Source: an uncultured Chromatiales bacterium (GTDB taxonomy: Bacteria; Pseudomonadota; Gammaproteobacteria; Poriferisulfidales; Oxydemutatoraceae). From it: DNA of 64,000 nucleotides. The notes under the pieces are model-generated. The model worked only from the letters and a program-made list of their open reading frames with translations. It was not told the DNA's origin and did not search any database. Location: the NCBI GenBank assembly GCA_964347615.1, contig CAYFZO010000005.1:34282-98281 (forward strand). The letters run 5' to 3'. The translations under genes and the position numbers were made by a program. Below, piece after piece: positions 3,413 to 54,160 of the stretch. The stretch's first letter is position 1, and the number at the start of each line of letters is the position of its first letter.

Positions 3413-3421
3413 GAATCGACG

Positions 3422-3622: not shown

Positions 3623-3636
3623 GCTGGCGTTCCTCC

Positions 3637-3975: not shown

Positions 3976-3983
3976 CGCGTGCA

Positions 3984-6569: not shown

Positions 6570-6893
6570 TTATACGTTGAAGCTTTCTCCGCAGCCGCAA
6601 CGCCCCTTCTCGTTCGGGTTGTTGAACCTGAAGCCTTCGTTGAGACCTTCCTTGCCGAAATCGAGCTCGGTTCCTTCGAGATACGCCAAGCTCTTCCGGT
6701 CCACCACCATCTTGACGCCCTTGTCTTCGAACACCTGATCGCCCTCCTCGAGCCGGTCGGCGTATTCGATGACGTAGGCCATGCCTGAGCAGCCGCTGGT
6801 GCGTACGCCGAGGCGTACGCCGAGCCCCTTGCCGCGCACGGCGATGTGCCGCCTGACCCGGTCCGCAGCGGCGTCGGTCAACGTAATCGCCAT
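6570..6893 (-). CDS. iscA: A-type Fe-S carrier IscA.
   Basis: 107 aa with the SGCSGMAY...CGCGESF cysteine motifs of IscA/HesB. Confidence 0.9.
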
Positions 6894-6947
6894 CGGGAGC
6901 CTCCCTGAAAAACCTCGTCGAAGCTTCGTCGAAATCCGGACGTCGCT

Positions 6948-7349: not shown

Positions 7350-7377
7350 GGTTTGATCCTCCTTTAAAGAATTCTTG

Positions 7378-12608: not shown

Positions 12609-13712
12609 ATGAACGACGATCCTGACAACCCGGTGATGCGTCGCTGCTTGCAGAAAGTGGCGACGGGGCCGGAATACAGCAAAGACCTGAGCTTCGAGGA
12701 AGCCCGCGAAGGCGGCAAGCAAATCTTTTCAGGCGCCGCCGGCGCGGTGCAGACTGCGGTGTTCTTGATCGCGTTGAGAATGAAGCGCGAAACCGACGAC
12801 GAAAACGCCGGCCTCCTGCAAGCGTTGCTCGACTGCATGCAGCCCGTCGTCGCACCGGTCGAGACGCTGGTGGACGTCGGCGAACCCTACAACGGCTACA
12901 CGCGATGCCTGCCGACGTCGGCGTTCCTGCCGGCGATGCTCGCGGCCTGCGACGTGCCTGCGGTCATCCACGGCTTGGAGGAAGTCGGCCCCAAGTACGG
13001 CGCAACCCCCCACAAGATACTGCGCGCGGCGGGCAAGACGACCGATTTGGACGGCGAAGCGGCGGCGGCGCAGCTCGGCACGGCAGGCTGGGCTTACGTT
13101 GACCAAAGCCGCTATTGTCCGGCACTGCACGCGTTGGTCGGGTTGCGAAACCTGATGGTCAAGCGCTCGGTGCTGAACACGATCGAGGTGCTCACCGGCC
13201 CGATTCGGGCGCAACGCAGCACCCACTTGCTGACCGGCTACGTGCACAAGGCCTACCCGCCGGCATACACGCGGCTCGCAAAACAATCCGGGTTTGCGTC
13301 GGCGCTGATCGTGCGCGGCGTCGAAGGCGGCGTCTCGGCGTCGCTCCGCCAACCCGCCGAGACGTTCGAATATCACGACGACGACGAGCGGTCGTGCAAA
13401 ATCAACCCGGCGGACGCCGGCGTTGAACGGACAATCAAGTGCGTGCCGCTGCCCGAATCACTTCCCGCGGTCAAAGCAAGCGACAACGTCGCGGCGAAAA
13501 CGGACTCCGACGCATTGGCTGAAGCGGCGGCGCAGACCGGCCTCGGCGCGCTGCGCGGCGAAACGGGCGCGGCACGCGACAGCCTGATTTACACCGCCGC
13601 CGCCGTGCTCACCCACCTCAAACGCTGCGCTTCGGTTGCCGAAGCCGCCGCCACGGCGCGGCAAGCGCTCGACGCCGGCGAGGCGCTCGCACGTTTCACC
13701 GCAGGCAAGTGA
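12609..13712 (+). CDS. TrpD2/YbiB-family protein (anthranilate phosphoribosyltransferase-like fold).
   Basis: FLIALRMKRETDDE...VDVGEPYNGYTRCLPTSAFLPAMLAACDVPAVIHGLEE...ALIVRGVEGG is collinear with E. coli YbiB (IALRIKGEGEAE...IPSYNGARK...VVVHGVSE). The canonical TrpD GTGGDG motif is missing, as is typical of TrpD2. Confidence 0.6.
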   Translation: MNDDPDNPVMRRCLQKVATGPEYSKDLSFEEAREGGKQIFSGAAGAVQTAVFLIALRMKRETDDENAGLLQALLDCMQPVVAPVETLVDVGEPYNGYTRCLPTSAFLPAMLAACDVPAVIHGLEEVGPKYGATPHKILRAAGKTTDLDGEAAAAQLGTAGWAYVDQSRYCPALHALVGLRNLMVKRSVLNTIEVLTGPIRAQRSTHLLTGYVHKAYPPAYTRLAKQSGFASALIVRGVEGGVSASLRQPAETFEYHDDDERSCKINPADAGVERTIKCVPLPESLPAVKASDNVAAKTDSDALAEAAAQTGLGALRGETGAARDSLIYTAAAVLTHLKRCASVAEAAATARQALDAGEALARFTAGK

Positions 13713-14784: not shown

Positions 14785-16236
14785 TTACCCGGTGAATGTC
14801 CGCGGGAACGACGCCGTTCCATGACGACCAGAATCAGGCTGGTCCAACATAGGGCGTGCAACGTAAACACGTATTTTCCCGTGGAAAATATGTTGTCGGA
14901 CTGCAAAAACAGCTGCGCCCAGATAAAGACCAGCATCCCGATTAATGAACGTCACGTCGCGGAAAAGCTTGACCCGCCCCCTGCGCGCCTGAACCGCGGC
15001 AAACCACGTGGACCCGACGAGCGCAAGCGCCGAGAGACCCGTGAATACCTTGCCCGCCGTAAAGTGCGCGTCCAGTCCCGCAGTATAAAAAGCATGGAGG
15101 TTCCTGACCCTGAGAAGTTCGTATATGAAACCCCTCACCGACTCCCAGTCCAGCGCACCCACCAAGTTTCCAAGTTCACGGTGATAGTTCCGCCCTGCCC
15201 TTCCCGTCATCCCTTTCGACAAAACCTCGGTCACCCACCCGCTTTCATAAGTGATTGTCCCGTCATAAAACCGCGACCACAGAACCGGGTCGCTGATCAA
15301 CCATTCATAAACGACGATTTTGGCCAATTGCCCGAGCATGAAGCAGGCCACAAAACCGACTATATAAAGCCCGACACACGCGACCGCCGACTTGATTTCC
15401 CCAGACGTGAAATAAATGAACGACCCGATCAGGGTCATTATAAGAATCGTATGACCGTCAAGCGTCCACACGTAAGACGACACCATCCCGGCGATAAAGC
15501 AAAAGAGGCGCAAGGATCCGGATGAAGCACGACTCCCGGCCAATAAAACCAAAACGACCGCCGACGCAACGGCCCACAAATGCCCCAGACCATCCGCCGA
15601 ACCGGGAAAATACCGGATGCCCGAAAAGAAAAAGCCGAAAACAATCAACGGAGAAAAAAGCAGAAACGTTCTCGGGTAAAACCGCAACAGAAAAACCGCC
15701 AGCAACAAATAAGCGAAATAAGTGACGGTTTTCGTCATTTCCCTGATCTCAAAAACCGAGAAATAACGCAACGCGACGGCGTGTAACGCCTTGCCTCCCC
15801 ACCAGTACCGGGTCTTCTCCAACCGGTCCCCAAACTCGGCGCCATCCACTGCAACCGAGGCCAACGCCGCACAATAAGCGCCGGGTGCTCTGTCGAAGCT
15901 CTTCAACAGCACGGCGTCAAGAAACGGAGTGGCGACGTCCGTTCTCGTGTAACCCCCTCTCAGTATCATCAGCGACGTCTGGCACTGTGCAAATCTACGT
16001 GTACCCCCTAAAAGCGTTATCGGATACGGCGTCTCGGAATACATAACCCACAAACTCGGGGAGTGCGTCCGCCCAAGATTGTTTTCCTTGAAAGCCGTCT
16101 CAAACCTTTGCTTCCCCAGCTCGTAAGGCAGTTGGTTACCGAGATAGTGCAGGAAAAAGAAAAGCACCGTGCCTGAAACGGCAACGGCGGCATACGTGAA
16201 AAACGATTTCAAGGAAAGTCCGGGAAGGCTGTGCAT
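14785..16236 (-). CDS. Polytopic integral membrane protein, duplicated copy 1 (483 aa from MHSLPG; an in-frame upstream ATG at 16380 would give 531 aa).
   Basis: There are multiple hydrophobic helices (YFAYLLLAVFLLRF, LLFSPLIVFGFFFSG, LWAVASAVVLVLLAG, ILIMTLIGSFIYF, VACVGLYIVGFVACFML) plus soluble N- and C-terminal regions. The apparent plus-strand ORFs over the same DNA are low-complexity antisense artefacts. Confidence 0.6.
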   Translation of the reverse strand: MHSLPGLSLKSFFTYAAVAVSGTVLFFFLHYLGNQLPYELGKQRFETAFKENNLGRTHSPSLWVMYSETPYPITLLGGTRRFAQCQTSLMILRGGYTRTDVATPFLDAVLLKSFDRAPGAYCAALASVAVDGAEFGDRLEKTRYWWGGKALHAVALRYFSVFEIREMTKTVTYFAYLLLAVFLLRFYPRTFLLFSPLIVFGFFFSGIRYFPGSADGLGHLWAVASAVVLVLLAGSRASSGSLRLFCFIAGMVSSYVWTLDGHTILIMTLIGSFIYFTSGEIKSAVACVGLYIVGFVACFMLGQLAKIVVYEWLISDPVLWSRFYDGTITYESGWVTEVLSKGMTGRAGRNYHRELGNLVGALDWESVRGFIYELLRVRNLHAFYTAGLDAHFTAGKVFTGLSALALVGSTWFAAVQARRGRVKLFRDVTFINRDAGLYLGAAVFAVRQHIFHGKIRVYVARPMLDQPDSGRHGTASFPRTFTG

Positions 16237-16888: not shown

Positions 16889-18340
16889 TTACCCGGTGAA
16901 TGTCCGCGGGAACGACGCCGTTCCATGACGACCAGAATCAGGCTGGTCCAACATAGGGCGTGCAACGTAAACACGTATTTTCCCGTGGAAAATATGTTGT
17001 CGGACTGCAAAAACAGCTGCGCCCAGATAAAGACCAGCATCCCGATTAATGAACGTCACGTCGCGGAAAAGCTTGACCCGCCCCCTGCGCGCCTGAACCG
17101 CGGCAAACCACGTGGACCCGACGAGCGCAAGCGCCGAGAGACCCGTGAATACCTTGCCCGCCGTAAAGTGCGCGTCCAGTCCCGCAGTATAAAAAGCATG
17201 GAGGTTCCTGACCCTGAGAAGTTCGTATATGAAACCCCTCACCGACTCCCAGTCCAGCGCACCCACCAAGTTTCCAAGTTCACGGTGATAGTTCCGCCCT
17301 GCCCTTCCCGTCATCCCTTTCGACAAAACCTCGGTCACCCACCCGCTTTCATAAGTGATTGTCCCGTCATAAAACCGCGACCACAGAACCGGGTCGCTGA
17401 TCAACCATTCATAAACGACGATTTTGGCCAATTGCCCGAGCATGAAGCAGGCCACAAAACCGACTATATAAAGCCCGACACACGCGACCGCCGACTTGAT
17501 TTCCCCAGACGTGAAATAAATGAACGACCCGATCAGGGTCATTATAAGAATCGTATGACCGTCAAGCGTCCACACGTAAGACGACACCATCCCGGCGATA
17601 AAGCAAAAGAGGCGCAAGGATCCGGATGAAGCACGACTCCCGGCCAATAAAACCAAAACGACCGCCGACGCAACGGCCCACAAATGCCCCAGACCATCCG
17701 CCGAACCGGGAAAATACCGGATGCCCGAAAAGAAAAAGCCGAAAACAATCAACGGAGAAAAAAGCAGAAACGTTCTCGGGTAAAACCGCAACAGAAAAAC
17801 CGCCAGCAACAAATAAGCGAAATAAGTGACGGTTTTCGTCATTTCCCTGATCTCAAAAACCGAGAAATAACGCAACGCGACGGCGTGTAACGCCTTGCCT
17901 CCCCACCAGTACCGGGTCTTCTCCAACCGGTCCCCAAACTCGGCGCCATCCACTGCAACCGAGGCCAACGCCGCACAATAAGCGCCGGGTGCTCTGTCGA
18001 AGCTCTTCAACAGCACGGCGTCAAGAAACGGAGTGGCGACGTCCGTTCTCGTGTAACCCCCTCTCAGTATCATCAGCGACGTCTGGCACTGTGCAAATCT
18101 ACGTGTACCCCCTAAAAGCGTTATCGGATACGGCGTCTCGGAATACATAACCCACAAACTCGGGGAGTGCGTCCGCCCAAGATTGTTTTCCTTGAAAGCC
18201 GTCTCAAACCTTTGCTTCCCCAGCTCGTAAGGCAGTTGGTTACCGAGATAGTGCAGGAAAAAGAAAAGCACCGTGCCTGAAACGGCAACGGCGGCATACG
18301 TGAAAAACGATTTCAAGGAAAATCCGGGAAGGCTGTGCAT
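16889..18340 (-). CDS. Polytopic integral membrane protein, duplicated copy 2 (483 aa).
   Basis: Over 99% identical to copy 1 at the protein level, with a single L7F difference in the compared region. Confidence 0.6.
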   Translation of the reverse strand: MHSLPGFSLKSFFTYAAVAVSGTVLFFFLHYLGNQLPYELGKQRFETAFKENNLGRTHSPSLWVMYSETPYPITLLGGTRRFAQCQTSLMILRGGYTRTDVATPFLDAVLLKSFDRAPGAYCAALASVAVDGAEFGDRLEKTRYWWGGKALHAVALRYFSVFEIREMTKTVTYFAYLLLAVFLLRFYPRTFLLFSPLIVFGFFFSGIRYFPGSADGLGHLWAVASAVVLVLLAGSRASSGSLRLFCFIAGMVSSYVWTLDGHTILIMTLIGSFIYFTSGEIKSAVACVGLYIVGFVACFMLGQLAKIVVYEWLISDPVLWSRFYDGTITYESGWVTEVLSKGMTGRAGRNYHRELGNLVGALDWESVRGFIYELLRVRNLHAFYTAGLDAHFTAGKVFTGLSALALVGSTWFAAVQARRGRVKLFRDVTFINRDAGLYLGAAVFAVRQHIFHGKIRVYVARPMLDQPDSGRHGTASFPRTFTG

Positions 18341-36859: not shown

Positions 36860-38203
36860 CTAATCATGCGCGAGGCGGAAGCCGTAGCCGACCCCGCGCG
36901 TCGGGCGGGTGTCCCAGTCCCGGTTCGCCACCCGCAGGTCTCTGGCGTTGCTGCCCCAGAAGCCGCCGCGGATAACGGCTTTCTCGCAGTCGCCGCCGTG
37001 GCTCGAGGTCCAAGCGCTGCCGTCGGTCGGGGCGCCGTCGTAATTGCCGTGCCAGCAGTCCTCCACCCATTCCCAGACGTTCCCGTGCAAGTCATGCAAT
37101 CCCCACCGGTTCGGCTTATGGCTTCCCGTGCTGACCGGCCCGGCGATCCGGTCGTCATAATTGGCGTGGCGACGAAGCCTGCCCGCGTCGTCGCCGAAGT
37201 GATACTCGGTCGTGCTCCCCGCGCGCGCCGCGTATTCCCATTCGGCTTCGGTCGGCAGACGGTAACGCTTGCCGGTGCGGTTGTTCAACCAATTTATGTA
37301 TGCTTGGGCGTCGCCCCAGCTGACCGAGACAACGGGGTGATCGCCGCCTTTGGATTCGGAACGCCAATCGTCTCCCGCGTCGTAGCCGGTCGCGGCGATG
37401 AACGCCTCAAACTGAAATTCCATCACTTCGTATTTGCCCAAAGAAAAGGACTCGACGTGGACGGTATGGGCGGGGGCTTCGTCGCTGTCGCCGATGCCTT
37501 GAGCGTCGCCCATGCGGAAGCTGCCCGCAGGCAAAGACACCATCTCATGGGCGGTCTCCGGGTCTTCTTCGTCTTGCTGCACCAGGCCCGAACCGTCGGA
37601 TGAGGTCATACCGGTCTGTGCGGGTTCCCCCTCCTGCTGCGCCGGCGCTTTCGGGGCGTCGGGGGAAGTCATGCCAGCATCGGGCGTTGCCTGCTGCCGC
37701 GTCGCGTCCGCATCGTCCGGCGAAGCGGCATCGGGCTTTGCAGGTTCCTCTTGCTGCACCGAGGCTTTCGGGGCGTCGGAGGAAGTCATGTCGGTGTCAG
37801 GCGTTGCCTGCTGCGTCGCGTCCGTATCGTCCGGCGAAGCAGCATCGGACTTTGCAGGCTCCTCCTGCTGCACCGACGCTTTCGAGGCATCGGGCGTCGG
37901 CTGCTGCTGCGTCGCGTCCGTATCGTCCGGCGAAGCGGCGTCGGACTTCGCGGGTTCCTCTTGCTGCGCCGACGCTTTCGGGGCGTCGGGCGTCGGCTGC
38001 TGCCGCGCTGCGTCCGTATCGCCCGGCGATACGACGTCGTCCTCGACGGGCTCTCCCTTGTCCGGGAGAAACATATAAATACCGGCACCGAGAACCAGCA
38101 GCACCAATGCTGCTACCAACGCTTTTTCGCCCAACGAGAACCTCGCCGGCGAGCCGCCGCGCTTGTTCCCTTCCCCAGCTTTTCCTGTTTGATCTCTCTC
38201 CAT
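36860..38203 (-). CDS. Formylglycine-generating-enzyme (FGE/SUMF1) domain protein with an N-terminal TM anchor and a repetitive acidic linker.
   Basis: The C-terminal FGE-sulfatase fold motifs are LPAGSFRMGD, RLPTEAEWEYAARAG, HDLHGNVWEWVEDCW, GGFW. There is one TM helix (ALVAALVLLVLGAGIYMF) and about 4 tandem ~32-38-aa repeats (SPDDTDATQQQPTPDASKASVQQEEPAKSDAA). Confidence 0.75.
   Translation of the reverse strand: MERDQTGKAGEGNKRGGSPARFSLGEKALVAALVLLVLGAGIYMFLPDKGEPVEDDVVSPGDTDAARQQPTPDAPKASAQQEEPAKSDAASPDDTDATQQQPTPDASKASVQQEEPAKSDAASPDDTDATQQATPDTDMTSSDAPKASVQQEEPAKPDAASPDDADATRQQATPDAGMTSPDAPKAPAQQEGEPAQTGMTSSDGSGLVQQDEEDPETAHEMVSLPAGSFRMGDAQGIGDSDEAPAHTVHVESFSLGKYEVMEFQFEAFIAATGYDAGDDWRSESKGGDHPVVSVSWGDAQAYINWLNNRTGKRYRLPTEAEWEYAARAGSTTEYHFGDDAGRLRRHANYDDRIAGPVSTGSHKPNRWGLHDLHGNVWEWVEDCWHGNYDGAPTDGSAWTSSHGGDCEKAVIRGGFWGSNARDLRVANRDWDTRPTRGVGYGFRLAHD
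37576..38032. repeat. In-frame tandem repeat, about 4 units of 96-114 bp, within the FGE-family gene.
   Basis: The repeated DNA is ...GTCGGCTGCTGC(C/T)GCG(T/C)(C/T)GCGTCCGTATCG(T/C)CCGGCGA(A/T)(G/A)C(G/A)GC(G/A)TCGG... It encodes the Asp/Pro/Thr/Gln-rich units. Confidence 0.7.
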
Positions 38204-38567: not shown

Positions 38568-41500
38568 CTAAGCGCGCTTCCCGCCGAGCGGCCAACCGCC
38601 GTGCGAATCAATCTCCTGATCGATGCGCCCCATGACCCGCGGAGTCTCGGCCAAGGCGGCGCATATCCGGCGGTAATGGGTGACCTCCTCGAACGAGAGG
38701 GTCTTGCCCTTTCGATCTTTCAGCCACCTCTCCACAGGGCGATAACCGCCGATGGCAAACGCCCAAGTGTCGGGCGCGACACCCTCGAAGCACTGCTCGC
38801 CGTTGATCCATACTTGCCCCGGTGTGTCATCGGCGGGCGAGACGTAGCGAGCCCTTTCTACGTGATTCGTGCCCTCACACGCAAAGGCGGGCTTGTCATC
38901 TGCTTCTGCCGTCATCAAGTGCAAAGCAGTAAGGCGCTGCCCCAAACCGACGAGTATCGAGAACAGTTCTTGGCTTTGGGTCAGTGGCACGCGAGGGAAA
39001 TCAGACTTCAGGAAGTCAGCATAACGACGGCGGTATTCCGGGCTGTGCAATACGGCGTAGATGTAATGGAACACGTCCTCCGGGCCAAACGAAGCCTTTA
39101 AATCGCCGGCGCTTTCAGGGGTAAATTTGAGATTCAAGGCAGCACTGGCCGCTTCAATGAATTCCTCGTCGATATTAGCTTGGCGCACTCTGTTCGCTTT
39201 ACCCTCTCCTTTCTCCTTATAGAGGTACAGAGGGAAAAGATGGTTGCCCTCCTTGAGAGAGGCGGCGTGAAGCTGAGCGAGGATCTGCGAAACAAAAACA
39301 TGCTTCCAGCCTCCGACTATTTCTGTTGACCTCGTTGTCAAGAGACCCAAATTCTTCCCGGCCAGCATCTGCTCCATGACTTTTTTGCGAGGCCTACAAA
39401 GAAAACCGCTCGATTTCCCCGTGTAGCAGGTAAACCGATTGTCAAACGGTCTGTACAGAATTGGGACAACGTGAGTGTCAATATCAGGATGCGAGCGTAA
39501 ATCTTCTTGCGCCAGCGACACTTTCCAATCATGCACGTCCTTTCCTAAGTTGTAGCGAGCACGGACTTTTTCTTCTGAGAGCCCCACGAAATCAGACGTG
39601 ACGCGCCGCATGTCTTCACGCGTCCACTGAATCGTCAGCTTGTCTCGTGCGGTCGCAATTCCCACCGAGTGAACGGGGAAAACGTCGGTTATTCTGACGC
39701 CCGTCTCGTACTCGTCATTCATCTTTTCATCGCGCGGCACAAACAGGTAGAGCGGTGATTTCGGCGAGAGCGGCGTCCATTCGGTGGTTGCAACGTGGTT
39801 GGCGGCCAACCACCCGTACTTCCCGCGGTTCGGTCCGCTTTCACGCTCGCCCCACAAATCGGCGTGGAACACTTGAGCTAAAGCACCGTCGGCGTTCTTC
39901 CGCTTAACGAACAAACCGATCGCAACTCCCTGCTGAATATCAAACACGTTCTCATCCCTGCCGCCGCCCGGCGGACTTTCCTTTCTCTTGGTATTGCCGT
40001 GCAGATCCAGCAGATAAATCTCGTCGAAGGTCTGCATCAGAGTTTGGCGCATCCCGCGAAAAGTCGGGTTATCCAAGTAGCTGTGGTTGGTAACAAAACC
40101 AAGCACCCCCTCACCGGTGCGCTCAATTTTCCATTGAGCAACACGAATAAACTTGACGTAATCGTCATTCAGCCATTTGGGATTTCTCTCACCGAGCGGA
40201 TGGTTATCCACCTCGAAATAATTGCCGATCCTTTCTCTGACTTGGCGGCCACGCAGCAACCCCTTAATCCATTCACCCTGATTGGAAGAATGACCGGAAT
40301 AAGGCGGGTTGCCCAGCACCACCATCACCGGCTTATCACGCTTCACGGCGTCTGCGCTCGCCGCCTCACGCACGATTTCGTGAGCAAACAGCCCGAGGCC
40401 GGCTTCCCGATGCGCTTCTTCGAGCGCGTTGGTGAGAAAAACCCCTAAGCGCTGATTGGCCGGCATTTTGAATCCGCCGTTGGTTTCGCCAATCCCGAGG
40501 GCGAGCGCCAGCTTCAGATGGCAAATCGCGTAGGGAGCCATCATCAGCTCGAACCCGAAAAGGCGCTCCAGCAGATTGTCCTGCACGTAATCGGGCCAAG
40601 CGCCGCCGAGACCTTTTTCCTTGACCGTCTCGCGGATGCGAGCAACCACCTCGCACAGGAACGTTCCCGTGCCCACCGCCGGGTCGAGGATCAGCACGCG
40701 CGGACACGATTGCTGCTCTCCGGTATAAGTCTTGAACGTAACCGTGGACTTATCGGCAAGCCCGTCCTTAACGTCGAGCCGGTTACGAAGCAGGTGATCC
40801 ACGCTTCGCACGATATAGGAAACCACCGGTTCAGGCGTGTAATAAACGCCGCGCACTTTACGCAGTCCTGGATCGTAGGCGGCCAGAAAGTCTTCGTAGA
40901 AGTGCACCACCGGGTCGTCGCGCCGATTGCGGCTGCCGAAATCAGCAAGGACGGCTGCCATGTCCGCCCGGTGAAGCAGCAACGCGAGGTCGTCCACGAC
41001 CCACGCGATTTTTGGATGGCAAGCGGGCCCGGCGACGTTGCCGAAAACGTCCCGCAGGAAAGGTGTCGTCTCGACGAAAGTCGCGGATTGGCGCGTGAAC
41101 GGCCCCGCCTGCGCAGGGTCATGCAGACAACGCGCCGCGAACAGACCATAGACGGCGGTCTGTGCCTGCAGATCGGCGAATTGAGCGGGCGACAGGTCGG
41201 GAATCAAAACTTCGCGGTAGTCGTTATGCAAGTCATGCAACGGCCCGGACCCCCTTTCCTCCTTGAGAATATCCTTGATACCGTCACGCAACATTCGAGC
41301 CTTGCTCGCCATCTGTTCGGCAAGAGCGCCGGAATTGCCGATTGGCGGCGGGTCGGCTGCAAAAAACGCACCGAACAGCTCGCCGACCTGCTCGGCTCCG
41401 GCTTTATCAAAAGCAATTCCGTCCGGGCCGGCGAGACGTGCAAGGCGTGTATCCATGCGCGGCTCGCCTTGCGCATACCAGCGAAACTCCAGATAGTCGG

Positions 41501-41816
41501 TCAAAATCAGGTTGGGCAAACCGTCACGATAGCGTCTCAGCTGCTCATGATTTTCGACTGAACCCAAATCAACTCCGATATCTTTACATTCGACGTGACC
41601 TACAGGAACCTCACCGCGGTTGACGATAAAGTCGGGTACGCCGAAAGCCTCTTTCGAGGGTTCATTGATGGCTTGGACACCTTGACCCCCCAGATCTTCA
41701 ATCAGCTTCTGAAGCGCCGACCGGTAACTGTGCTCGGTGGCCTGTCCGGTCGCGTAGACTTTTTCCACTTTGCGGCAGTAGGCGCGAAACAGGTTTATTG
41801 ACTTCTGGTCTGCCAC
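38568..41816 (-). CDS. Type IIL/IIG restriction-modification enzyme of the MmeI family: PD-(D/E)xK endonuclease fused to a gamma-class N6-adenine methyltransferase and a target-recognition domain.
   Basis: The N-terminal nuclease motif is VPDFIVNRGEVPVGHVECKD (D...ExK). MTase motif I is VLILDPAVGTGTFL and motif IV is VVLGNPPYSGHS. It is a single 1082-aa ORF with GC visibly below the flanks. No separate methyltransferase or specificity gene is adjacent. Confidence 0.7.
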   Translation of the reverse strand: MADQKSINLFRAYCRKVEKVYATGQATEHSYRSALQKLIEDLGGQGVQAINEPSKEAFGVPDFIVNRGEVPVGHVECKDIGVDLGSVENHEQLRRYRDGLPNLILTDYLEFRWYAQGEPRMDTRLARLAGPDGIAFDKAGAEQVGELFGAFFAADPPPIGNSGALAEQMASKARMLRDGIKDILKEERGSGPLHDLHNDYREVLIPDLSPAQFADLQAQTAVYGLFAARCLHDPAQAGPFTRQSATFVETTPFLRDVFGNVAGPACHPKIAWVVDDLALLLHRADMAAVLADFGSRNRRDDPVVHFYEDFLAAYDPGLRKVRGVYYTPEPVVSYIVRSVDHLLRNRLDVKDGLADKSTVTFKTYTGEQQSCPRVLILDPAVGTGTFLCEVVARIRETVKEKGLGGAWPDYVQDNLLERLFGFELMMAPYAICHLKLALALGIGETNGGFKMPANQRLGVFLTNALEEAHREAGLGLFAHEIVREAASADAVKRDKPVMVVLGNPPYSGHSSNQGEWIKGLLRGRQVRERIGNYFEVDNHPLGERNPKWLNDDYVKFIRVAQWKIERTGEGVLGFVTNHSYLDNPTFRGMRQTLMQTFDEIYLLDLHGNTKRKESPPGGGRDENVFDIQQGVAIGLFVKRKNADGALAQVFHADLWGERESGPNRGKYGWLAANHVATTEWTPLSPKSPLYLFVPRDEKMNDEYETGVRITDVFPVHSVGIATARDKLTIQWTREDMRRVTSDFVGLSEEKVRARYNLGKDVHDWKVSLAQEDLRSHPDIDTHVVPILYRPFDNRFTCYTGKSSGFLCRPRKKVMEQMLAGKNLGLLTTRSTEIVGGWKHVFVSQILAQLHAASLKEGNHLFPLYLYKEKGEGKANRVRQANIDEEFIEAASAALNLKFTPESAGDLKASFGPEDVFHYIYAVLHSPEYRRRYADFLKSDFPRVPLTQSQELFSILVGLGQRLTALHLMTAEADDKPAFACEGTNHVERARYVSPADDTPGQVWINGEQCFEGVAPDTWAFAIGGYRPVERWLKDRKGKTLSFEEVTHYRRICAALAETPRVMGRIDQEIDSHGGWPLGGKRA

Positions 41817-46801: not shown

Positions 46802-48355
46802 GTGAACGATGCCGCCCCCCCGACCGCGACGGCGCGGCGTACGATGCTCGTCATACTCGACGGCTTCGGCGTCAGCCTGAACGAGGCCAACAACGCCGTC
46901 CACATGGCGAAAACGCCGCGGCTGGACGCGCTGTTCGAACGCTACCCGCATACCTTGCTCGAAGCTTCGGGCCCCGCGGTCGGGCTGCCCGCCGGACAAA
47001 TCGGCAACTCCGAGGTCGGGCACATGACGATGGGATGCGGCTGCGTGATCGAACAGGATTTGGTGCGCATCAACAACGAGATCGAATCCGAAGCGTTCTA
47101 TGAAAATCCCTCGCTGATTTACACGCTGAAACAAGCCAAGAAAGCCAAACGTCCGATACACCTGCTCGGGCTGGTCTCGGACGGCGGCGTGCATTCGCAC
47201 GTCACCCACCTCGAAGCATTGATCGAGATGTGCCGACAGCAGGAAGTTGCGCCCGTGTTGCACGCCGTCACCGACGGACGCGACACGTCGCCGCGCGAAG
47301 CGATGCAGTTCATCGAACGCGTCGAGCCGCAAATCAAGAACGCGGGCGGTGAGATCGCGACGGTGATGGGACGCTATTACGCGATGGACCGCGACCACCG
47401 CTGGGCGCGCACCGAACGCGCTTGGCGCGCAATCGCGCTCGGCAAAGGCACCGAACGCGAAAACGCCGCCGAGGCGATTCGCCTGTCCTACGAAGCGGAC
47501 TGCGGCGATGAGTTCATCGAGCCTTGCGTGCTGCCCGCGGCGCGACCGCTCGACGAAGAAGACCACGTCATCTTGTTCAACTTCCGCAACGACCGCCCGC
47601 GACAACTGATCAAGGCGCTGGTGTCGCCGACGTTCGACTCCTTCAACCGCGGCGACGCGCCGGTGGTCAACGTCACGACGATGACCGAAGTGGACAAGAC
47701 GTTTCCGTGCCTGGTCGCGATTGCCGCGGTGAGACCGAAAATCACGCTGGCCAAGACCATCAGCGAATACGGCCTCAAGCAGTTCCACTGCGCCGAGACC
47801 GAGAAGTATCCGCACGTGACCTTCTTCTTCAACGGCGGCACCGAAGAGCCGCTGCCCGGCGAGGAACGCGAACTGATTCCGTCGCCGAAAGTGCCGACTT
47901 ATGACACCAAGCCCGAGATGAGCGCGAAAGAAGTCGCCGACGCGGTGGTGCAAGCGCTGGCGAACCCGGAATTCTCGTTTATCGTCGTCAACTTCGCCAA
48001 TACCGACATGGTCGGACACACCGCGGTGGCCGACCCGATCATCAAGGCGGTCGAAACCGTGGACCGCGAGACCGGCCGCCTTGTGGACGCCGCGACCGAG
48101 CACGGCTGGTCGGTGGTGATTACCTCAGACCACGGCAACTGCGACGAGATACTGAACCCCGAGACACAACAACCCAACACGCGGCACACGATGAACCCGG
48201 TGCCGTTCCTGATCGTGGACGGCGAAGACCATCACCTCGCCGGGGGATGCAACATCAGCAGCATCGCCCCGACCGTGCTGGAACTGATGGGGCTGGAAGC
48301 GCCGAAAGAGATGCTGGCACCGTCGGTGATCGTGAAGAAGAAAGGGAAGAAGTGA
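46802..48355 (+). CDS. gpmI: 2,3-bisphosphoglycerate-independent phosphoglycerate mutase.
   Basis: LVILDGFGVS...NSEVGHMTMG...GLVSDGGVHSH...ADMVGHT...ITSDHGNCD. Confidence 0.95.
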   Translation: MNDAAPPTATARRTMLVILDGFGVSLNEANNAVHMAKTPRLDALFERYPHTLLEASGPAVGLPAGQIGNSEVGHMTMGCGCVIEQDLVRINNEIESEAFYENPSLIYTLKQAKKAKRPIHLLGLVSDGGVHSHVTHLEALIEMCRQQEVAPVLHAVTDGRDTSPREAMQFIERVEPQIKNAGGEIATVMGRYYAMDRDHRWARTERAWRAIALGKGTERENAAEAIRLSYEADCGDEFIEPCVLPAARPLDEEDHVILFNFRNDRPRQLIKALVSPTFDSFNRGDAPVVNVTTMTEVDKTFPCLVAIAAVRPKITLAKTISEYGLKQFHCAETEKYPHVTFFFNGGTEEPLPGEERELIPSPKVPTYDTKPEMSAKEVADAVVQALANPEFSFIVVNFANTDMVGHTAVADPIIKAVETVDRETGRLVDAATEHGWSVVITSDHGNCDEILNPETQQPNTRHTMNPVPFLIVDGEDHHLAGGCNISSIAPTVLELMGLEAPKEMLAPSVIVKKKGKK

Positions 48356-48361
48356 GCAATT

Positions 48362-48490
48362 CAAGGCAGGCTTGAATATGGAGACTTCTTCCCGCCATGT
48401 TAAAGGCTGGCTTGAATATGGAGGCTTCTCCCCGCCATATTAAAGGCTGGCTTGAATATGGAGGCTTCTCCCTGCCATATTAAAGGCTGC
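48362..48490. repeat. Three tandem ~43-bp repeats, each with an internal 7-bp inverted repeat (AATATGG...CCATATT), immediately downstream of the gpmI stop.
   Basis: AAGGC(A/T)GGCTTGAATATGGAG(A/G)CTTCT(T/C)CC(C/T)GCCAT(G/A)TTAAAG occurs three times. Confidence 0.8.
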
Positions 48491-48495
48491 GTTCA

Positions 48496-48729
48496 ATGCT
48501 GAATTCCAAGACACAACAATTGAACACGCGGCACACGATGAACCCGGCGCCGTTCCTGATCGTGGACGGCGAAGACCATCACCTCGCCGGGGGATGCAAT
48601 ATCAGCAGCATCGCCCCGACCGTGCTGGAACTGATGGGACTGGAAGCGCCGAAAGAGATGCTGGCGCCGTCGGTGATCGTGAAGAAGAAAGGGGGTGGGG
48701 TGAGCCCGAAAATAAACAATCAAACTTAA
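48496..48729 (+). pseudogene. Diverged duplicate of the last ~65 codons of gpmI (3'-end remnant).
   Basis: ...TQQLNTRHTMNPAPFLIVDGEDHHLAGGCNISSIAPTVLELMGLEAPKEMLAPSVIVKKKGG is about 95% identical at the DNA level to 48148-48345 (gpmI C-terminus TQQPNTRHTMNPVPFLIVDGEDHHLAGGCNISSIAPTVLELMGLEAPKEMLAPSVIVKKKGKK). It has a different, AT-rich tail. Confidence 0.7.
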
Positions 48730-48733
48730 CGCT

Positions 48734-49237
48734 TCAGGCCAGCTCCTTTATCGCCTTTTCTGCCACATCAAACAAAGCCTCTACCTTTTTATTATCGTTC
48801 TCAATATCCATAGACCGTCTTACGATTCTTACAACAGTAAAAATTGAGAAGACTAAAGTTACAACGCTTACGGAAAGCAAAAATCTTGTTCCCCAGATTA
48901 CGAATGGAAAAGAAAACAGTATTCCGAGATGAGCTAATAATGCGAAACTAATAATGACAAGAAGAAATCCGCTAATGATCATGCTCCGATTCTTGTCTTC
49001 TGAAGAATAAGTCTCCATTCTATCCACTGCCTTAGAAAAATCGGCATAACAAACTTCCTCCAACATCCTCTCTCCGCCGGGCAGGCGTCTGAGCTTCTCC
49101 TCGAGCCGAGCGAAATTTTGCCTTTGATTTTCTAGGCTAATATTTATGGGGGCCTGAACCTGCCGAATAGCCAGTAATACAAACGAAGACGCGATAATGA
49201 CAGCGTTTAGCGCATTGCTTGCCAGTGAATCCACCAC
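48734..49237 (-). CDS. Hypothetical small membrane protein (167 aa, 2-3 TM helices) in an AT-rich island.
   Basis: The hydrophobic segments are ALNAVIIASSFVLLAI, IISGFLLVIISFALLAHLGILFSFPFVIW and LLSVSVVTLVFSIFTVV. Its GC is much lower than the core. Confidence 0.45.
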   Translation of the reverse strand: MVDSLASNALNAVIIASSFVLLAIRQVQAPINISLENQRQNFARLEEKLRRLPGGERMLEEVCYADFSKAVDRMETYSSEDKNRSMIISGFLLVIISFALLAHLGILFSFPFVIWGTRFLLSVSVVTLVFSIFTVVRIVRRSMDIENDNKKVEALFDVAEKAIKELA

Positions 49238-49361
49238 TTATTCCTACATTAAAGGTCAGCAAGAAGCTTACTGCGAACTGCTTAAAAGCACAGGGACTTG
49301 ACGCCCTAAACGCAAACCGAAAAGCTCAGCAACTACGGTTTTAAGCGAAACAGAACTAGCT

Positions 49362-49901
49362 CTAATTTCCGCTTGCGGTTTGTTGCGCTTGAAATTTCTC
49401 TGGGAACAACCGGTGCTTTGCGCCTGTCAGCATTTCTCCTAGAATGGGATCGTTAAAACAAGCAATTGCTTCTTTTGTTACATCGTCTTTTTCAAGACGG
49501 TACCTCTTGTCTCCGACCAAGATGAAATGAGGATAGCCTGCATAAAACTCGGATTTGACGCCTATCTTTAATTTTCCGTTATCGGACTCATCCACCGCTT
49601 TAGCAAAATCGTTGCCCTTCATATCTTCGTCGTTGGAAACCGCGACCAAAACTTCAGTTTTCTCCAATGCACTTTTGACACTATCCACCAGCTGGTTGTA
49701 AAAATCCTTATTGAGGGTTCCGCTATATATACAGACTTGCTCCTTTTTGTCTTCCGCAATCTTCAGCAAGTTGTCGAAAAGAATTTTTGCATGAGGGCGA
49801 GACAGGTTCGTTAATACATTTTCGCTCTCTTTCTTGCGATATTTCTCAACTATTTTTTCATATTTAGATTTAGTTTTCATTTTTGGTACTCTCATTATCA
49901 A
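49362..49901 (-). CDS. Hypothetical protein (179 aa) in an AT-rich island.
   Basis: MKTKSKYEKIVEKYRKKESEN...VCIYSGTLNKDFYNQLVDSVKSALEKTEVLVAVSNDEDMKGNDFAKAV... No family recognised by eye. It is lysine-rich and low GC. Confidence 0.5.
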   Translation of the reverse strand: MIMRVPKMKTKSKYEKIVEKYRKKESENVLTNLSRPHAKILFDNLLKIAEDKKEQVCIYSGTLNKDFYNQLVDSVKSALEKTEVLVAVSNDEDMKGNDFAKAVDESDNGKLKIGVKSEFYAGYPHFILVGDKRYRLEKDDVTKEAIACFNDPILGEMLTGAKHRLFPEKFQAQQTASGN

Positions 49902-50211
49902 CTTCGTCCAGCACCACGTTTTCAGGGTGCGAACACGTACGCCCCGAAGAACAAAATCGGGGGCGTGTTAAAAAATCAAACTGTTTTCCCTGGAAGCCAT
50001 TTCTGCCCCCACATCAGAAATGGGGGTAGGCAAGTGTATTACAGACGCACAAAAGCTATCAACAATTATCCTTTCCCCAAATGGAAAGCCTAGTTTCAAT
50101 GAAAAAACTAGATTGTTCTTGAATCAGCCAAGCTTCCCAGTAACACATTGATAGAAAAGAAAATCGGTGTCGCCGAAACAGGCTTCTCAAAGCCACCCGC
50201 TTCACCCCCAA

Positions 50212-51291
50212 TCAACCATCCGCCGAAAACAAGTCAAACAGCAGACGGTTGATGTAGTAATTGCTGCGTCCGATTTTCGCTTTCTCCAGGAACCCCTTCT
50301 CGACCAGCTGTTCCAGATACTTGGTCGCGGTGATGTAAGTAACGCCTAAATCCTCACTGACGAATCCTCTCTTGGTATAGACGTGCTTGAACAGGTTGTT
50401 GAGCAGGTCCTGGCTGTAAATATTCGGCAGCTCCCTGCGGATGCGGTGTTTGTATTCCTGCATCAGCGTTTTAATTTTTCCGATTAAAGAGATGGTGAAA
50501 CCGGCGGTCTGTTCAACGCCGTCAAGCATGTACAGCAGCCACGGTTCCCACTCTCCGCTCGTCCGCACGTCTTGCAGCTGGCGGTAATACTCCTGTTTGT
50601 CCCGAATGATGTAACGGCTGAGATAAAGCACGGGCAAGTCGAGCAAGCCTTTGAAAACGAGGTACAGAACGTTCAGGATGCGACCGGTGCGGCCGTTGCC
50701 GTCGTAGAAAGGGTGGATGCTCTCGAAGCGATGATGAATCAACGCCATCTTCACCAACGGGTCGGTGTCGGAGTCGTCGGTGTTGATGTAATCAACCAAC
50801 TCGGCCATCAGTCGCTCGACTTCCCGCGCATCCTGCGGCGGGGTGTAAATCACTTCGTCGGTTTGGACGTTCTTGATGACGGTGCCGGGCAATTTACGCA
50901 AGCCCGCGTCGTTCTTTTCCAGCACCTGCTGAAGCGACAAAATGTCCCCAAGTCGAATAATCCGGTTTTCTCGGACCGACTCAAAACCCTGTTGCAGGGC
51001 ATCGGCGTAGTCACGCACTTCCTTAGCCGCGGGACCGACGCTTACTTTGGGAGAAACTCCCGCTTTGTACAACTCGTCGTAAGTCGTCACGATGTTCTCC
51101 ACGGCCGAGCTGTCTTTCGCTTCCTGCAACGTCAGCGTGCTGATGAGTATGGCTTCGTTGGGAATGGTCGCCGTGGCGCCTTTCAGCTCGGCCAAACAAC
51201 GGGAGGCCGAAACGACTTTTCTCAATACGGCATTGCTCTCCAAGCCGGCGGCAGACGACAAGGGGGCAAGAAGTAGAGGGTCGGTCAACAT
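50212..51291 (-). CDS. fic: Fic/DOC-family (AMPylation-fold) protein with a C-terminal winged-helix domain.
   Basis: The Fic core motif is HPFYDGNGRTGR (HxFx(D/E)GNGRxxR). The length and layout are typical of Fic family proteins, and the C-terminal wHTH region is ...VSEDLGVTYITATKYLEQLVEKGFL. Confidence 0.85.
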   Translation of the reverse strand: MLTDPLLLAPLSSAAGLESNAVLRKVVSASRCLAELKGATATIPNEAILISTLTLQEAKDSSAVENIVTTYDELYKAGVSPKVSVGPAAKEVRDYADALQQGFESVRENRIIRLGDILSLQQVLEKNDAGLRKLPGTVIKNVQTDEVIYTPPQDAREVERLMAELVDYINTDDSDTDPLVKMALIHHRFESIHPFYDGNGRTGRILNVLYLVFKGLLDLPVLYLSRYIIRDKQEYYRQLQDVRTSGEWEPWLLYMLDGVEQTAGFTISLIGKIKTLMQEYKHRIRRELPNIYSQDLLNNLFKHVYTKRGFVSEDLGVTYITATKYLEQLVEKGFLEKAKIGRSNYYINRLLFDLFSADG

Positions 51292-51294
51292 GGC

Positions 51295-51560
51295 AGGCTA
51301 TTATATAGAAAATGCTGATTTCTATATAATAGAAAGACGACCTCTATAGATTTATCCCGTTTCTATATATATCTTTAGTCACAATAGATAGCCGTATTAT
51401 ATAAAAAACCCCAATTTCTATATAATAGAAAGACGACCTCTATAGATTTATCCCATTTCTATATATATCTTTGGTTACATAGATAGCCGTATTATATAGA
51501 AAATCCCGATTTCTATATAATAAAAAGCCGACCTCTATAGATTTCTCAGTTTTCTATGCA
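51295..51560. repeat. Three tandem ~95-bp AT-rich direct repeats containing the near-palindromic core TTTCTATATAATAGAAA, upstream of fic.
   Basis: ATTTCTATATAATAGAAAGACGACCTCTATAGATTTATCCC(G/A)TTTCTATATATATCTTT... recurs with a period of about 95 bp (starting near 51316, 51412 and 51508). Confidence 0.8.
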
Positions 51561-51635
51561 ATAGGAGACCGGCACCCCGCCCGCAGGGCAAGGACGCCAC
51601 GTCGCTTCGCCTGAAGCCTCCCGGCCCCTAAAAAC

Positions 51636-51944
51636 CTACCGCCAATAATCGTTGGCGATTGCGATGGTCTTGAATTCCCTCGCGACGAGTTCCGCCGCTT
51701 CCATCAGCAGCGCGGGGTCGTCCTCATACTCCTTGCGAACCTTCATCTTGATTTCGGGGCTGCGTTGAATCGCGCCGATGGTTTTCCTCACGATCTTGAT
51801 CGCAAGCATCCGCCCTTCCAGCGGCGTCTTCGTGATGAGGCTCGGCATGTAGTCCTCGCTTTTCTGCTCCTGCGCCACAGCGACCTGAGTGGACGCGGCG
51901 GCCACGACGGCGGCAAGCACCAGCAGTTTCAATGTCTTGTTCAT
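51636..51944 (-). CDS. Hypothetical secreted/periplasmic protein (102 aa, Sec signal peptide).
   Basis: MNKTLKLLVLAAVVAAASTQVAVAQEQ... It has core-like GC. The start is taken at the ATG at 51944. Confidence 0.5.
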   Translation of the reverse strand: MNKTLKLLVLAAVVAAASTQVAVAQEQKSEDYMPSLITKTPLEGRMLAIKIVRKTIGAIQRSPEIKMKVRKEYEDDPALLMEAAELVAREFKTIAIANDYWR

Positions 51945-52090
51945 GGCGTTCCTCCGGTTATCCGTGAAAATGAACGCACCGAGCATATCAAAAGCAAATC
52001 ACGCTCGGCGGGTGCTCGCAACCGTTCGGTCACCAAACCTCTCCCCCCCACTTGAGACAACCCCCGCCGGGCGGCTAACATGCTGCACCA

Positions 52091-54160
52091 ATGCTTCCCA
52101 TCACCGAACTTCGCGGCGTCGGCGACGCGGTTGCCGAGAAACTCGAGCGCCTCGGCATCCATCACGTCGAGGACTTGCTGTTCCACCTGCCGCTGCGCTA
52201 CCAAGACCGCACCCGCGTCCATCCGATCAACACCTTGAGTCCCGGCCAGGAGGTGTTGGTCGAGGGTGCAATCCAGCAGACCCGCGTCGTCTATGCGCGC
52301 CGACGCATGATGCTGGTCGCCATCGCCGACGGCACGGGCACGTTGACGCTGCGCTTCTTCCATTTCTCGACGGCGCAGCAGAACAGCCTGCGCAAGGGCG
52401 TACGTATCTGCTGCTTCGGCGAAGTCCGCAGGAGCCAGTCGCAGCTCGAAATGATTCATCCTGAGTACCAGTTCGTCAGCGCGCACGGCAACGCGCATCT
52501 GGACAGGGGCTACACGCCGATCTACCCGGCCACCGAGGGGCTAAGCCAGTTCAGCCTGCGCAAGTTCACCGGCGAAGCGCTGGCGTGGTTGTCGTCGCCC
52601 GACAACAACCTCGAGGAATTGCTGCCGCCGGCGGTGCTCGCCGAGGAGGGGGCGGTCTCGCTGCAGGACGCGATCCGTTACGTCCATCGCCCGCCCGCCG
52701 ACGCCGACGTCGAGTTGCTGCAGACCGGCGAGCACCCGATGCAGAAACGGCTGGCGTTCGAGGAGATGCTGTCGCATTCGTTGAGCCTCAAGCGGATGCG
52801 CGCCGACACCAAGCGTCAACGCGCGCGGGCGTTGAAAACCGAAGGCAAGTTGCTGGCTCAGCTGAAGGAGCGTCTGCCGTTCGAGCTGACCGCGGCGCAA
52901 CGCAAGGTCATAGAAGACGTTCGCGCCGACGTGCGCGAGGCGGCGCCGATGATGCGTCTGGTGCAGGGCGACGTCGGTTCGGGCAAGACCTTGGTCGGCG
53001 TGGCGGCGATGCTTGAAGCGGTCGAGGCGGGTTGTCAGGCGGCGATGATGGCACCGACCGAAATCCTCGCCGATCAGCATTACCGCAACCTCAAGGAGTG
53101 GTTCGGCCCGTTCGAAATCGGCATCGGCGCAATCCTCGGCAAGCAGAAAGTACGCGAGCACCGCAACGCGTTGCGCCAAGCACGCACCGGCGAGATAGAC
53201 ATCGTGGTCGGCACCCACGCCTTGTTTCAGGAGAAGGTCGAGTTCGCCCGCCTCGCGTTGATCGTCGTGGACGAGCAGCACCGCTTCGGCGTGCACCAGC
53301 GCCTCGCGCTCAAGCAAAAAGGCGAGAACGGCGACCTCCAGCCGCATCAGCTCATCATGACCGCCACGCCGATCCCGCGCAGCCTTGCGATGACGATGTA
53401 CGCCGACCTCGACTACTCGGTGATCGACGAGATGCCTCCCGGGCGACTGCCGGTCAAGACTTTCGCCCTGGCCGACACCCGCCGCAACGAGCTCATCGAG
53501 CGGGTGCGCAAGACCTGCGCCGAAGACGGGCAAACCTACTGGGTCTGCCCGTTGATCGAGAAGTCCGAAACGCTGAACTACGAGACCGCCGAAGCGACCT
53601 ACGACCGGCTCAAGCGCGCGATGCCCGAAATCAAGATTCAACTCATCCACGGACGGATGAAACCCGAGGAGAAAGAGGAGGCGATCGCCTTGTTCAAGCA
53701 GGGGGGAATTCAGCTGCTGGTCGCAACCACCGTGATCGAGGTCGGCGTGGACGTCCCCGACGCAAACCTGATCGTGATCGAGAACGCCGAACGCTTCGGG
53801 CTTGCTCAGCTGCACCAGTTGCGCGGACGGGTCGGGCGCAGCGGCAAGCAGGCGATGTGCGCGCTGCTTTACCATCCGCCGTTGTCGGGCACCGCGCGGC
53901 GCCGCCTTAACGTGATGCGCGAGACCAACGACGGCTTTGAGATCGCGCGCGAGGACATGAAGATCCGCGGGCCCGGCGAAATCCTCGGTACACGTCAGAC
54001 CGGCGAGATGCAATTCCGCATCGCCGATCTCACGCGCGACGCGAAGCAGCTTGAGCGGGTGCTCAAGACTTCCGAGCGGATGCTCGAAGCGCACCCGGAA
54101 GTCTGCGGCAAGTTGATTCGCCGCTGGCTCGGCGAGGCGGCGCGCTACGCCGAGGTGTGA
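52091..54160 (+). CDS. recG: ATP-dependent DNA helicase RecG.
   Basis: A wedge domain is followed by helicase motifs: Walker A GDVGSGKT, DEQHRFG and QLRGRVGRS. Confidence 0.95.
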   Translation: MLPITELRGVGDAVAEKLERLGIHHVEDLLFHLPLRYQDRTRVHPINTLSPGQEVLVEGAIQQTRVVYARRRMMLVAIADGTGTLTLRFFHFSTAQQNSLRKGVRICCFGEVRRSQSQLEMIHPEYQFVSAHGNAHLDRGYTPIYPATEGLSQFSLRKFTGEALAWLSSPDNNLEELLPPAVLAEEGAVSLQDAIRYVHRPPADADVELLQTGEHPMQKRLAFEEMLSHSLSLKRMRADTKRQRARALKTEGKLLAQLKERLPFELTAAQRKVIEDVRADVREAAPMMRLVQGDVGSGKTLVGVAAMLEAVEAGCQAAMMAPTEILADQHYRNLKEWFGPFEIGIGAILGKQKVREHRNALRQARTGEIDIVVGTHALFQEKVEFARLALIVVDEQHRFGVHQRLALKQKGENGDLQPHQLIMTATPIPRSLAMTMYADLDYSVIDEMPPGRLPVKTFALADTRRNELIERVRKTCAEDGQTYWVCPLIEKSETLNYETAEATYDRLKRAMPEIKIQLIHGRMKPEEKEEAIALFKQGGIQLLVATTVIEVGVDVPDANLIVIENAERFGLAQLHQLRGRVGRSGKQAMCALLYHPPLSGTARRRLNVMRETNDGFEIAREDMKIRGPGEILGTRQTGEMQFRIADLTRDAKQLERVLKTSERMLEAHPEVCGKLIRRWLGEAARYAEV

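Follow-up and report, generated by a model that had tools for sequence, protein, structure and literature searches.

In the stretch of DNA analysed here (64 kb, or 64,000 nucleotides (nt), from an uncultured gammaproteobacterium; referred to throughout as the window), the gene gpmI is followed by a second, degenerate copy of its own 3′ end, which we call the relic. The relic is probably a scar left by DNA that inserted long ago into the 3′ end of gpmI, and now probably forms the left border of a core defence hotspot (cDHS) that extends from gpmI to recG. The window strain is the unoccupied state of this hotspot, with 13 nt and a 3.3-unit tandem array between gpmI and an uninterrupted relic. 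A first-pass annotation of the same DNA, made from the letters alone, had taken the duplication as the mark of an integrative island. The features on which the argument depends are the following.

46802 to 48355, forward strand: live gpmI, encoding 2,3-bisphosphoglycerate-independent phosphoglycerate mutase of 517 amino acids (aa) (Pfam Metalloenzyme 4.7e-72, iPGM_N 9.3e-71).
48149 to 48346, forward strand: copy 1, the duplicated segment within live gpmI (repeat family D1, alignment).
48359 to 48489, forward strand: array in which a 40-bp unit of type A is repeated 3.3 times head to tail (TRF period 40, 92% matches).
48496 to 48729, forward strand: relic, the dead second gpmI 3′ end, readable as a 77-aa open reading frame (ORF) (repeat, alignment, ORF).
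48496 to 48524, forward strand: left, strongly diverged part of the relic (7/29 nt differ from gpmI; common to strain L082).
48525 to 48527, no strand: point at which cargo is inserted in the relic of sister strains, unoccupied in the window (junctions of strains L082, L090 and L091).

The last 198 nt of gpmI before its final three codons (48149-48346) recur as a direct repeat at 48496-48693, in register, ungapped and with 94.4% identity (blastn E=2.5e-85). The similarity is therefore genuine, and the repeated end of ~190 bp at ~95% identity in the first-pass annotation is borne out; the start-to-start spacing of the copies, given there as 357 bp, measures 347 bp. Faint similarity may reach ~8 nt farther left, to about 48141/48489. 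The tails of the copies differ, as had been noted, the live gene ending in ...GGGAAGAAGTGAGCAATTC and the second copy in ...GGGGGTGGGGTGAGCCCGAAAATAAAC, and past the two stop codons only GTGAGC is common to both. The DNA enclosed by the two copies in the window strain amounts to 149 bp.

We compared the window with three conspecific strains, L082, L090 and L091 (L092 being the recG side of L091), present as long contigs from one ENA sample, and with a sister species (90% GpmI identity) present as two short contigs, L083 and L093, that end at the borders of the hotspot. The closest species-representative genome, the metagenome-assembled genome 'uncultured candidatus Porisulfidus', has only 63% GpmI identity. 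The relic is present, at least in part, in 4/4 available strains of the species. The relics of the window, L090 and L091 all run into the same unique tail, ...GGGGTGAGCCCG(A/G)AAATAAACAATC, and share one derived base or more, which indicates that they are one relic inherited by descent.

The relic is non-functional. In the window its gpmI-like part (48496-48693) is followed by an ancestral stop (48701-48703) that has been put out of frame by an extra T, and Pfam returns only a sub-threshold match to the C-terminal part of Metalloenzyme. The stop homologous to the gpmI TGA is still in frame in L090 and L091 (VKKKRAG, then stop). The identity between relic and live gene is mosaic: the window relic differs from gpmI at 7/29 positions on its left and at 4/169 beyond (Fisher p=1.6e-4), the L090 relic at 0/76 positions at its start and at 18/90 alignment columns at its end (p=1.3e-5), and the L091 relic, likewise divided, at 1/76 and 16/90 (p=4e-4). 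The diverged stretches are ~20% different from the live gene, their changes are mostly non-synonymous, and they alter residues that are invariant or nearly so among the 40 closest GpmI homologues (QQPNT to QQLNT, APTVLELMGLE to VPTVLEPMRLG). The relic-type tail reads VKKK(G/R)(G/A)G and stop, then GCCCGAAAATAAAC; a C-terminus of this type was found in no live GpmI among the 120 best homologues. From this pattern, we infer that the relic is an old pseudogene fragment in neutral decay, patches of which would have been reset by gene conversion from live gpmI. The window copy would thus be 94% identical overall because patches of it were converted from the live gene. The divergence between the copies had been attributed to an origin of the second copy in another lineage; degenerative changes at invariant residues, combined with mosaic identity, fit decay and conversion instead.

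The hotspot has conserved flanks on both sides, gpmI on the left and recG on the right. Over ~11 kb upstream, L082, L090 and L091 are 96-97.6% identical to the window and colinear with it to or just past the gpmI stop, and on the recG side the L091 strain is 96.6% identical in nucleotides, with a RecG that is 99.3% identical in amino acids. Between these flanks the four strains have four different contents. In L082, the gpmI end, three type-A units of the array and the first 29 nt of the relic are kept, homology with the window stops after 48524, and the cargo consists of a GmrSD-like gene (HEC-06) followed by DarT and DarG remnants, at which point the contig ends. L090 and L091 are homologous to the window only as far as 48368. 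The gpmI-relic interval of L090 (~7.5 kb) holds a second SoFic gene, a GmrSD_N/HEC-05 gene, DarT, DarG and an HTH-M78 protein matching RmrA, after which L090 19005-21512 corresponds to window 48538-51044 at 95.1%. The interval of L091 (~14 kb), whose first part is common with L090, holds SoFic, GmrSD_N, a 1556-aa DUF4011 helicase and an FGE-sulfatase gene, and then the same relic; beyond the relic follow a pair of orphan genes, an extra, diverged orphan pair, SoFic, HTHP and recG. PADLOC recognised SoFic (5e-121), HEC-05/06, DarT (4e-63), DarG (2e-140) and RmrA (8e-52; RosmerTA antitoxin) in the cargo. The relic and the AT-rich block behind it are common to the window, L090 and L091, and the strain differences lie between gpmI and the relic or within the relic. 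Compared across relatives, strain-variable, horizontally acquired DNA thus adjoins the relic, and at least part of the relic is kept in all four strains.

Known defence systems dominate this cargo (two SoFic, HEC-05, HEC-06, DarT, DarG and RmrA, by PADLOC), conserved core genes stand on both sides of it, and gene content differs at one and the same position in four conspecific strains. No integrase or transposase was found among the called genes of the intervals of the window, L082, L090 and L091, the slots of the window, L090 and L091 being those to which this cDHS feature was applied. The gpmI-recG locus therefore shows every feature of a core defence hotspot that was tested, and is a known kind of locus. 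Homology with the sister species breaks off at the borders of the hotspot: that between L083 and the window ends 4 nt past the gpmI stop, homology with L093 resumes 93 nt upstream of recG (51998 onwards) at 86% nucleotide identity, and the flanks are 86-91% identical to the window. The L083 ORF that starts at the gpmI stop may be the N-terminus of a type I methylase.

The relic itself is interrupted in the sister strains, apparently by a single insertion. In L082, it ends at 48524 and is followed directly by the ATG of the GmrSD-like gene; in L090 and L091, it restarts with GCGGCACACGATG (48528-48540). These junctions come from separate contigs, agree within 3 nt, and neither shows a duplicated core. 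The window sequence runs uninterrupted across 48525-48527, and therefore represents the unoccupied state for that insertion. As a candidate core of an attachment site (att), we considered CTGAAYYCCRAGACACAACAAYYSAA, found once within gpmI (48152) and once where the relic begins on its left (48499), with L082 diverging directly after it. It was rejected because there is no second core at the right junction of L090 and L091 and no third site in the window, where a degenerate core pattern gave only the two expected matches. The higher divergence of the CTGAAYYCCRAGACACAACAAYYSAA segment fits an unconverted piece of the old relic.

We propose the following sequence of events. Well before the strains diverged, DNA would have entered the 3′ part of gpmI, bringing or regenerating a complete 3′ end (48149-48355) and displacing the earlier end downstream, where it became the relic. 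The DNA may have come from a sibling genome, by Campbell-type or homology-facilitated illegitimate recombination; alternatively, an integrase may have acted in the distant past and its machinery since been lost. The relic would then have decayed neutrally, to ~20% divergence where it was left alone, with patches reset by gene conversion. Cargo would have turned over with no dedicated integrase, probably by homologous recombination in the conserved flanks and in shared modules, together with illegitimate insertions, one of which would have struck the relic at 48524-48528.

Several points weigh against this reconstruction. Either of the two copies may be the native end. No relic-free strain was found, and the age of the relic is argued from divergence and sharing alone. 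Gene conversion is deduced from the mosaic identity, and exchange through flank homology from the absence of mobility genes. The L082 contig stops inside its cargo, and its right junction is taken to be that of L090. Finally, the relics of L090 and L091 hold an extra in-frame insert of 84 nt after the GCGGCACACGATG 13-mer, for which the proposed events do not account. This insert (L090 18913-19010; reverse complement in L092) has an ATG on both sides and yields an 82-aa ORF made of MRIVVSDASCLIDLKKVNLLRALFSLPQ and the relic. It has no Pfam match and may resemble the N-terminus of a PIN domain.

The array between gpmI and the relic varies among the strains as well. After the gpmI end come 13 nt and then the array, which begins at this same position past the stop in 4/4 strains. 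In the window, its type-A units occupy 48369-48408, 48409-48448 and 48449-48488, and each contains an imperfect palindrome, CTTGAATATGG...CCATATTAAAG, with the arms AATATGG and CCATATT 13 nt apart. The first-pass annotation was right in seeing a tandem array with such arms, but its three 43-bp units are 3.3 copies with a period of 40 bp, and unit 1 has CCATGTT in place of the second arm. Nor are its hairpin repeats a fixed feature, since two strains have a 40-bp unit that does not fold. L082 carries the same array as the window, with three type-A units; L090 and L091 carry 5.8 type-B units of 40 bp followed by one or two degenerate type-A units. The two types are ~55% identical in register, with CCATATTA and the 40-bp phase in common. 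Units inside one array are 90-96% alike, the pattern typical of a minisatellite whose units evolve in concert. The degenerate type-A unit of L090 keeps a perfect 9-bp palindrome, CTTGAATAT...ATATTCAAG, through a change that removes a mismatch. Predicted RNA folds of single type-A units have -10 to -14 kcal/mol (z -1.2 to -1.95), that of the 146-nt type-A region has -52.9 kcal/mol (z -2.7), and type-B units have no fold (z +0.3).

We read the array as a fast-evolving intergenic minisatellite, the least certain of our inferences. Lying, in the window strain, between convergent transcription units, it would act, if at all, most plausibly as a cluster of stem-loops at the 3′ end of the gpmI transcript. 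An intrinsic terminator was rejected, as the array has no GC-rich stem with a T/U tract; no terminator-like site was detected on either strand of 48356-48495, the hairpins there having no T run. A promoter reading of the units (TTGAAT-N18-CATATT) fell under the scan threshold, and promoter-like sites are not in excess. Rfam gave no match within 48000-52100 at E up to 1. With as many as 3 mismatches allowed, the 64-kb window yielded no further type-A unit (0 expected), nor was there one elsewhere in ~60 kb of conspecific loci, where the motif is confined to the gpmI locus; the 40-bp unit had 0 matches in JGI metagenome contigs, and no similar array lies 3′ of gpmI in more distant relatives. The comparison class consists of intergenic palindromic repeats of the type of repetitive extragenic palindromes (REP) and bacterial interspersed mosaic elements (BIME), and of bacterial minisatellites. 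As in these, imperfect palindromes of ~40 nt are clustered just 3′ of a gene's stop, copy number and unit sequence vary among strains, and each array is homogenised internally. However, membership of a REP/BIME family was rejected, because such families have many dispersed copies and none was found in the window or the ~60 kb of conspecific loci; the units here are also head-to-tail direct repeats rather than alternating inverted REPs, and one unit type has lost the palindrome.

The AT-rich block and the genes between it and recG are laid out as follows.

48734 to 49237, reverse strand: orphan 167-aa ORF, convergent with gpmI (no match in any protein-family library searched).
49362 to 49880, reverse strand: orphan 172-aa ORF (56% homologue in L089).
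50212 to 51291, reverse strand: SoFic-type Fic protein, of an anti-phage defence gene family (Pfam Fic_N, Fic, SoFic-like_C; PADLOC SoFic 1.6e-114).
51299 to 51544, no strand: AT-rich tandem array with a 96-bp unit in 2.6 copies, which includes palindromes such as TTTCTATATAATAGAAA and lies past the HTHP stop and ahead of the SoFic start.
51636 to 51944, reverse strand: HTHP-family haem protein (Pfam HTHP 7.7e-26).
52091 to 54160, forward strand: recG (Pfam RecG_wedge, DEAD, Helicase_C).

The first gene of the block that travels with the relic, the 167-aa ORF, encodes a protein with 93% aa identity in L090, 82% in L091 and a 37% paralogue in L091; the 172-aa protein falls in only 6 clusters among 5.8 billion proteins, and neither has a match in Pfam, NCBIfam or PADLOC. 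In the L091 strain (L092 11946-13193), a second, diverged 167/172-aa pair (37% and 72% aa) lies with a 45-aa C-terminal fragment of SoFic, which points to a tandem duplication of the module beside SoFic. The 96-bp array is conserved in the L091 strain, and the second SoFic gene of L090 is likewise preceded by tandem arrays and a TTTCCTATATATAT motif; such AT-rich arrays before SoFic genes may be operator sites for the winged-helix domain of SoFic. The HTHP gene is kept in the four strains and is missing beside recG in the sister species, where homology of L093 begins only at 51998. The block (167-aa ORF, 172-aa ORF and SoFic) has a guanine-plus-cytosine (GC) content of 0.41-0.47 against about 0.62. 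It appears to be an older resident of the hotspot and not an element delimited by the duplication. It is not the only AT-rich multi-gene block of the window, as had been stated, since 1001-3500 has a GC of 0.43-0.51. There, a second AT-rich block (1238-3343, GC 0.43-0.49) is probably a further defence island of small size: its genes are a 488-aa AAA_15/AAA_21 ATPase, which weakly matches effector ATPases of the retron and Septu type, and a 212-aa ORF that belongs to no family.

Duplication of a gene's 3′ end is a classical footprint of integrative elements, and the first-pass annotation had read the AT-rich block at 48730-51600 in this way. In the full form of this model, a site-specific recombinase inserted the block at the 3′ end of gpmI, and copy 2 is its att-linked replacement terminus. 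The 198-nt direct repeat, 94.4% identical and in register, is a duplication of this classical kind, and the low GC of the block marks it as compositionally foreign. Furthermore, in a related genus (L087 and L089, 78% GpmI identity), the complete 1.85-Mb relative L087 has, in comparison with L089, a 7.3-kb insert with a tyrosine integrase directly 3′ of gpmI, which indicates that, throughout the group, DNA just downstream of gpmI is prone to recombination. However, a replacement terminus can only be supplied by an element situated between the two copies. The AT-rich block lies outside the pair, has no third gpmI fragment or core-like site on its far side, and therefore fails this geometry; in 48730-52095, a sensitive local alignment for a third fragment was no better than with shuffled sequence. 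The gpmI-recG interval holds no integrase in 4/4 strains (among the window ORFs of 48356-52090, no integrase or recombinase gene), no tRNA gene lies near the block or the gpmI interval, the L087 island itself has no gpmI-derived flanking repeats, and the cargo junctions in the relic have no duplicated core. No phage, plasmid or viral contig was found to carry such a mimic of the gpmI 3′ end: no viral contig encodes a C-terminal GpmI fragment, and blastn of 48340-48760 gave only gpmM coding similarity in plasmids, nothing in phages, and the array in neither. The integrase model thus fails two of its own defining features at the window locus, and we regard it as distinctly unlikely, also in a tandem-accretion version in which a later element displaced copy 2. 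The genuine gpmI 3′-end scar, at the edge of strain-variable DNA, is the part of the earlier claim that stands; the block as an enclosed element is the part that does not. An integron or attC array was rejected separately, there being no integrase and no recurrent inverted-repeat sites between the cargo genes of L090.

A purely local origin, in which the gpmI 3′ end and the DNA downstream of it were duplicated in tandem and the DNA behind the first copy subsequently eroded or gave way to other sequence, with no foreign element, would agree with copies in perfect register 347 bp apart, with divergence that decay and gene conversion explain in full, and with the lack of any mobility gene. We nevertheless hold it to be unlikely, as the sequences past the stops share only GTGAGC and a second replacement exactly at the stop would be required, at a locus that repeatedly receives foreign DNA. 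That the array, the relic or both are maintained as functional elements (REP/BIME-like or terminator/insulator RNA for gpmI, operator sites for a regulator in the cargo, for instance the winged-helix domain of SoFic, or a 77-aa peptide that is expressed) overlaps the other readings rather than excluding them, and seems improbable. The constant position of a 40-bp-period array in 4/4 strains, 13 nt past the stop, the predicted fold of the 146-nt type-A region, the perfect palindrome kept in the degenerate L090 unit and the AT-rich arrays before both SoFic genes are in its favour; yet type-B units do not fold, Rfam gives no match, there is no U tract or promoter-like excess, the motif is restricted to this one place in the 64 kb and the conspecific loci, and the relic has gained a frameshift and non-conservative changes and is truncated or interrupted differently among strains. 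The combination of relic and array could also be an integrase-free landing pad, the array binding a host or cargo protein and the conversion-refreshed relic offering gene-identical homology, a notion that we consider very improbable. If it were true, promoterless, co-oriented defence genes would be captured or exchanged just 3′ of a housekeeping gene by general recombination, and the locus would resemble an integron platform, but with general recombination instead. The chance that the relic is an assembly artefact, formed when short metagenomic reads of two strains living together were assembled into a chimera, is close to negligible: window-type contigs do come from a metagenome with strain variants, and 198-nt repeats can misjoin, but an identical 77-aa relic ORF is found on three contigs, long contigs of another sample hold the left part of the relic (L082) and its right part, again with this tail and these neighbours (L090, L091), and fewer than 60 nt separate the diagnostic bases of the relic.

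Several further observations concern the cargo and the surroundings of gpmI. In the L090 cargo, paralogous ORFs of 74-75 aa (15599-15721 and 17630-17752, 85% nt) each precede a module of the toxin-antitoxin type (DarT-DarG and RmrA), and two short ORFs (13086-13164 and 15143-15221) have a common N-terminal coding segment (77% nt); all of these short ORFs look like debris of earlier cargo. In the relative L086 (79% GpmI identity), four tandem DUF2188 genes (6867-7820, 242-bp repeat) lie downstream of gpmI and a Fic gene with an nSTAND NTPase (2977-4086) replaces tatABC upstream of it, so that both flanks of gpmI are variable in that lineage. L087 has an IS605 OrfB/TnpB-like gene between hisE and tatA (7205-8536), absent from the window and L089. 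Farther from the hotspot, at window 37630-38029 (about 770-1215 in L082, L090 and L091), coding tandem repeats of 96-114 bp lie in a gene with an FGE-sulfatase domain, which has a type ISP restriction enzyme (window about 38568-41816) downstream of it; the copy number and arrangement of the repeats vary among the four strains.

Set against known systems, the probable old-insertion scar resembles the islands and prophages that insert at the 3′ ends of tRNA, tmRNA and protein genes and bring a substitute 3′ end with them (genomic islands at gene 3′ ends are the subject with which Williams, 2002, is reportedly associated), in that there is a direct, partial 3′ duplication with the intact gene upstream and the displaced fragment downstream. 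Unlike them, the locus has no integrase, the repeats leave its AT-rich block outside and have only 149 bp between them in the window strain, and later cargo entered the relic with no core duplication. The hotspot as a whole is similar to the cDHS of Pseudomonas aeruginosa and the pan-genome hotspots of Escherichia coli, which are fixed slots between core genes that receive varied defence systems, with GC under the genome average and no mobility genes in the slot (PMC10250203, PMC10121019). It differs from the cDHS in its flanks, gpmI and recG, in its host, an uncultured gammaproteobacterium, and in the 200-nt relic of a flanking gene and the strain-variable 40-bp minisatellite held in the slot. 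For the P. aeruginosa hotspots, the study describes flanking non-coding RNA genes, such as the ssrA tmRNA at cDHS2, and proposes exchange via the conserved flanks by transduction and homologous recombination (PMC10250203). Exchange through flank homology is proposed for core defence hotspots there, not shown (PMC10250203).

The locus is otherwise ordinary, and no new enzyme, RNA or mechanism is demonstrated by it. It is a strain-level example of the build-up of a defence hotspot in an uncultured lineage, and it offers a datable scar in the form of the relic, one unoccupied allele in the window and three occupied alleles with junctions at base-pair level. It is therefore suited to the open question of how cargo enters and leaves core defence hotspots that have no mobility genes. 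In addition, gene conversion in short tracts would keep a pseudogene partly gene-like, so that overall identity can mislead estimates of its age or origin, as it did in the first-pass annotation.

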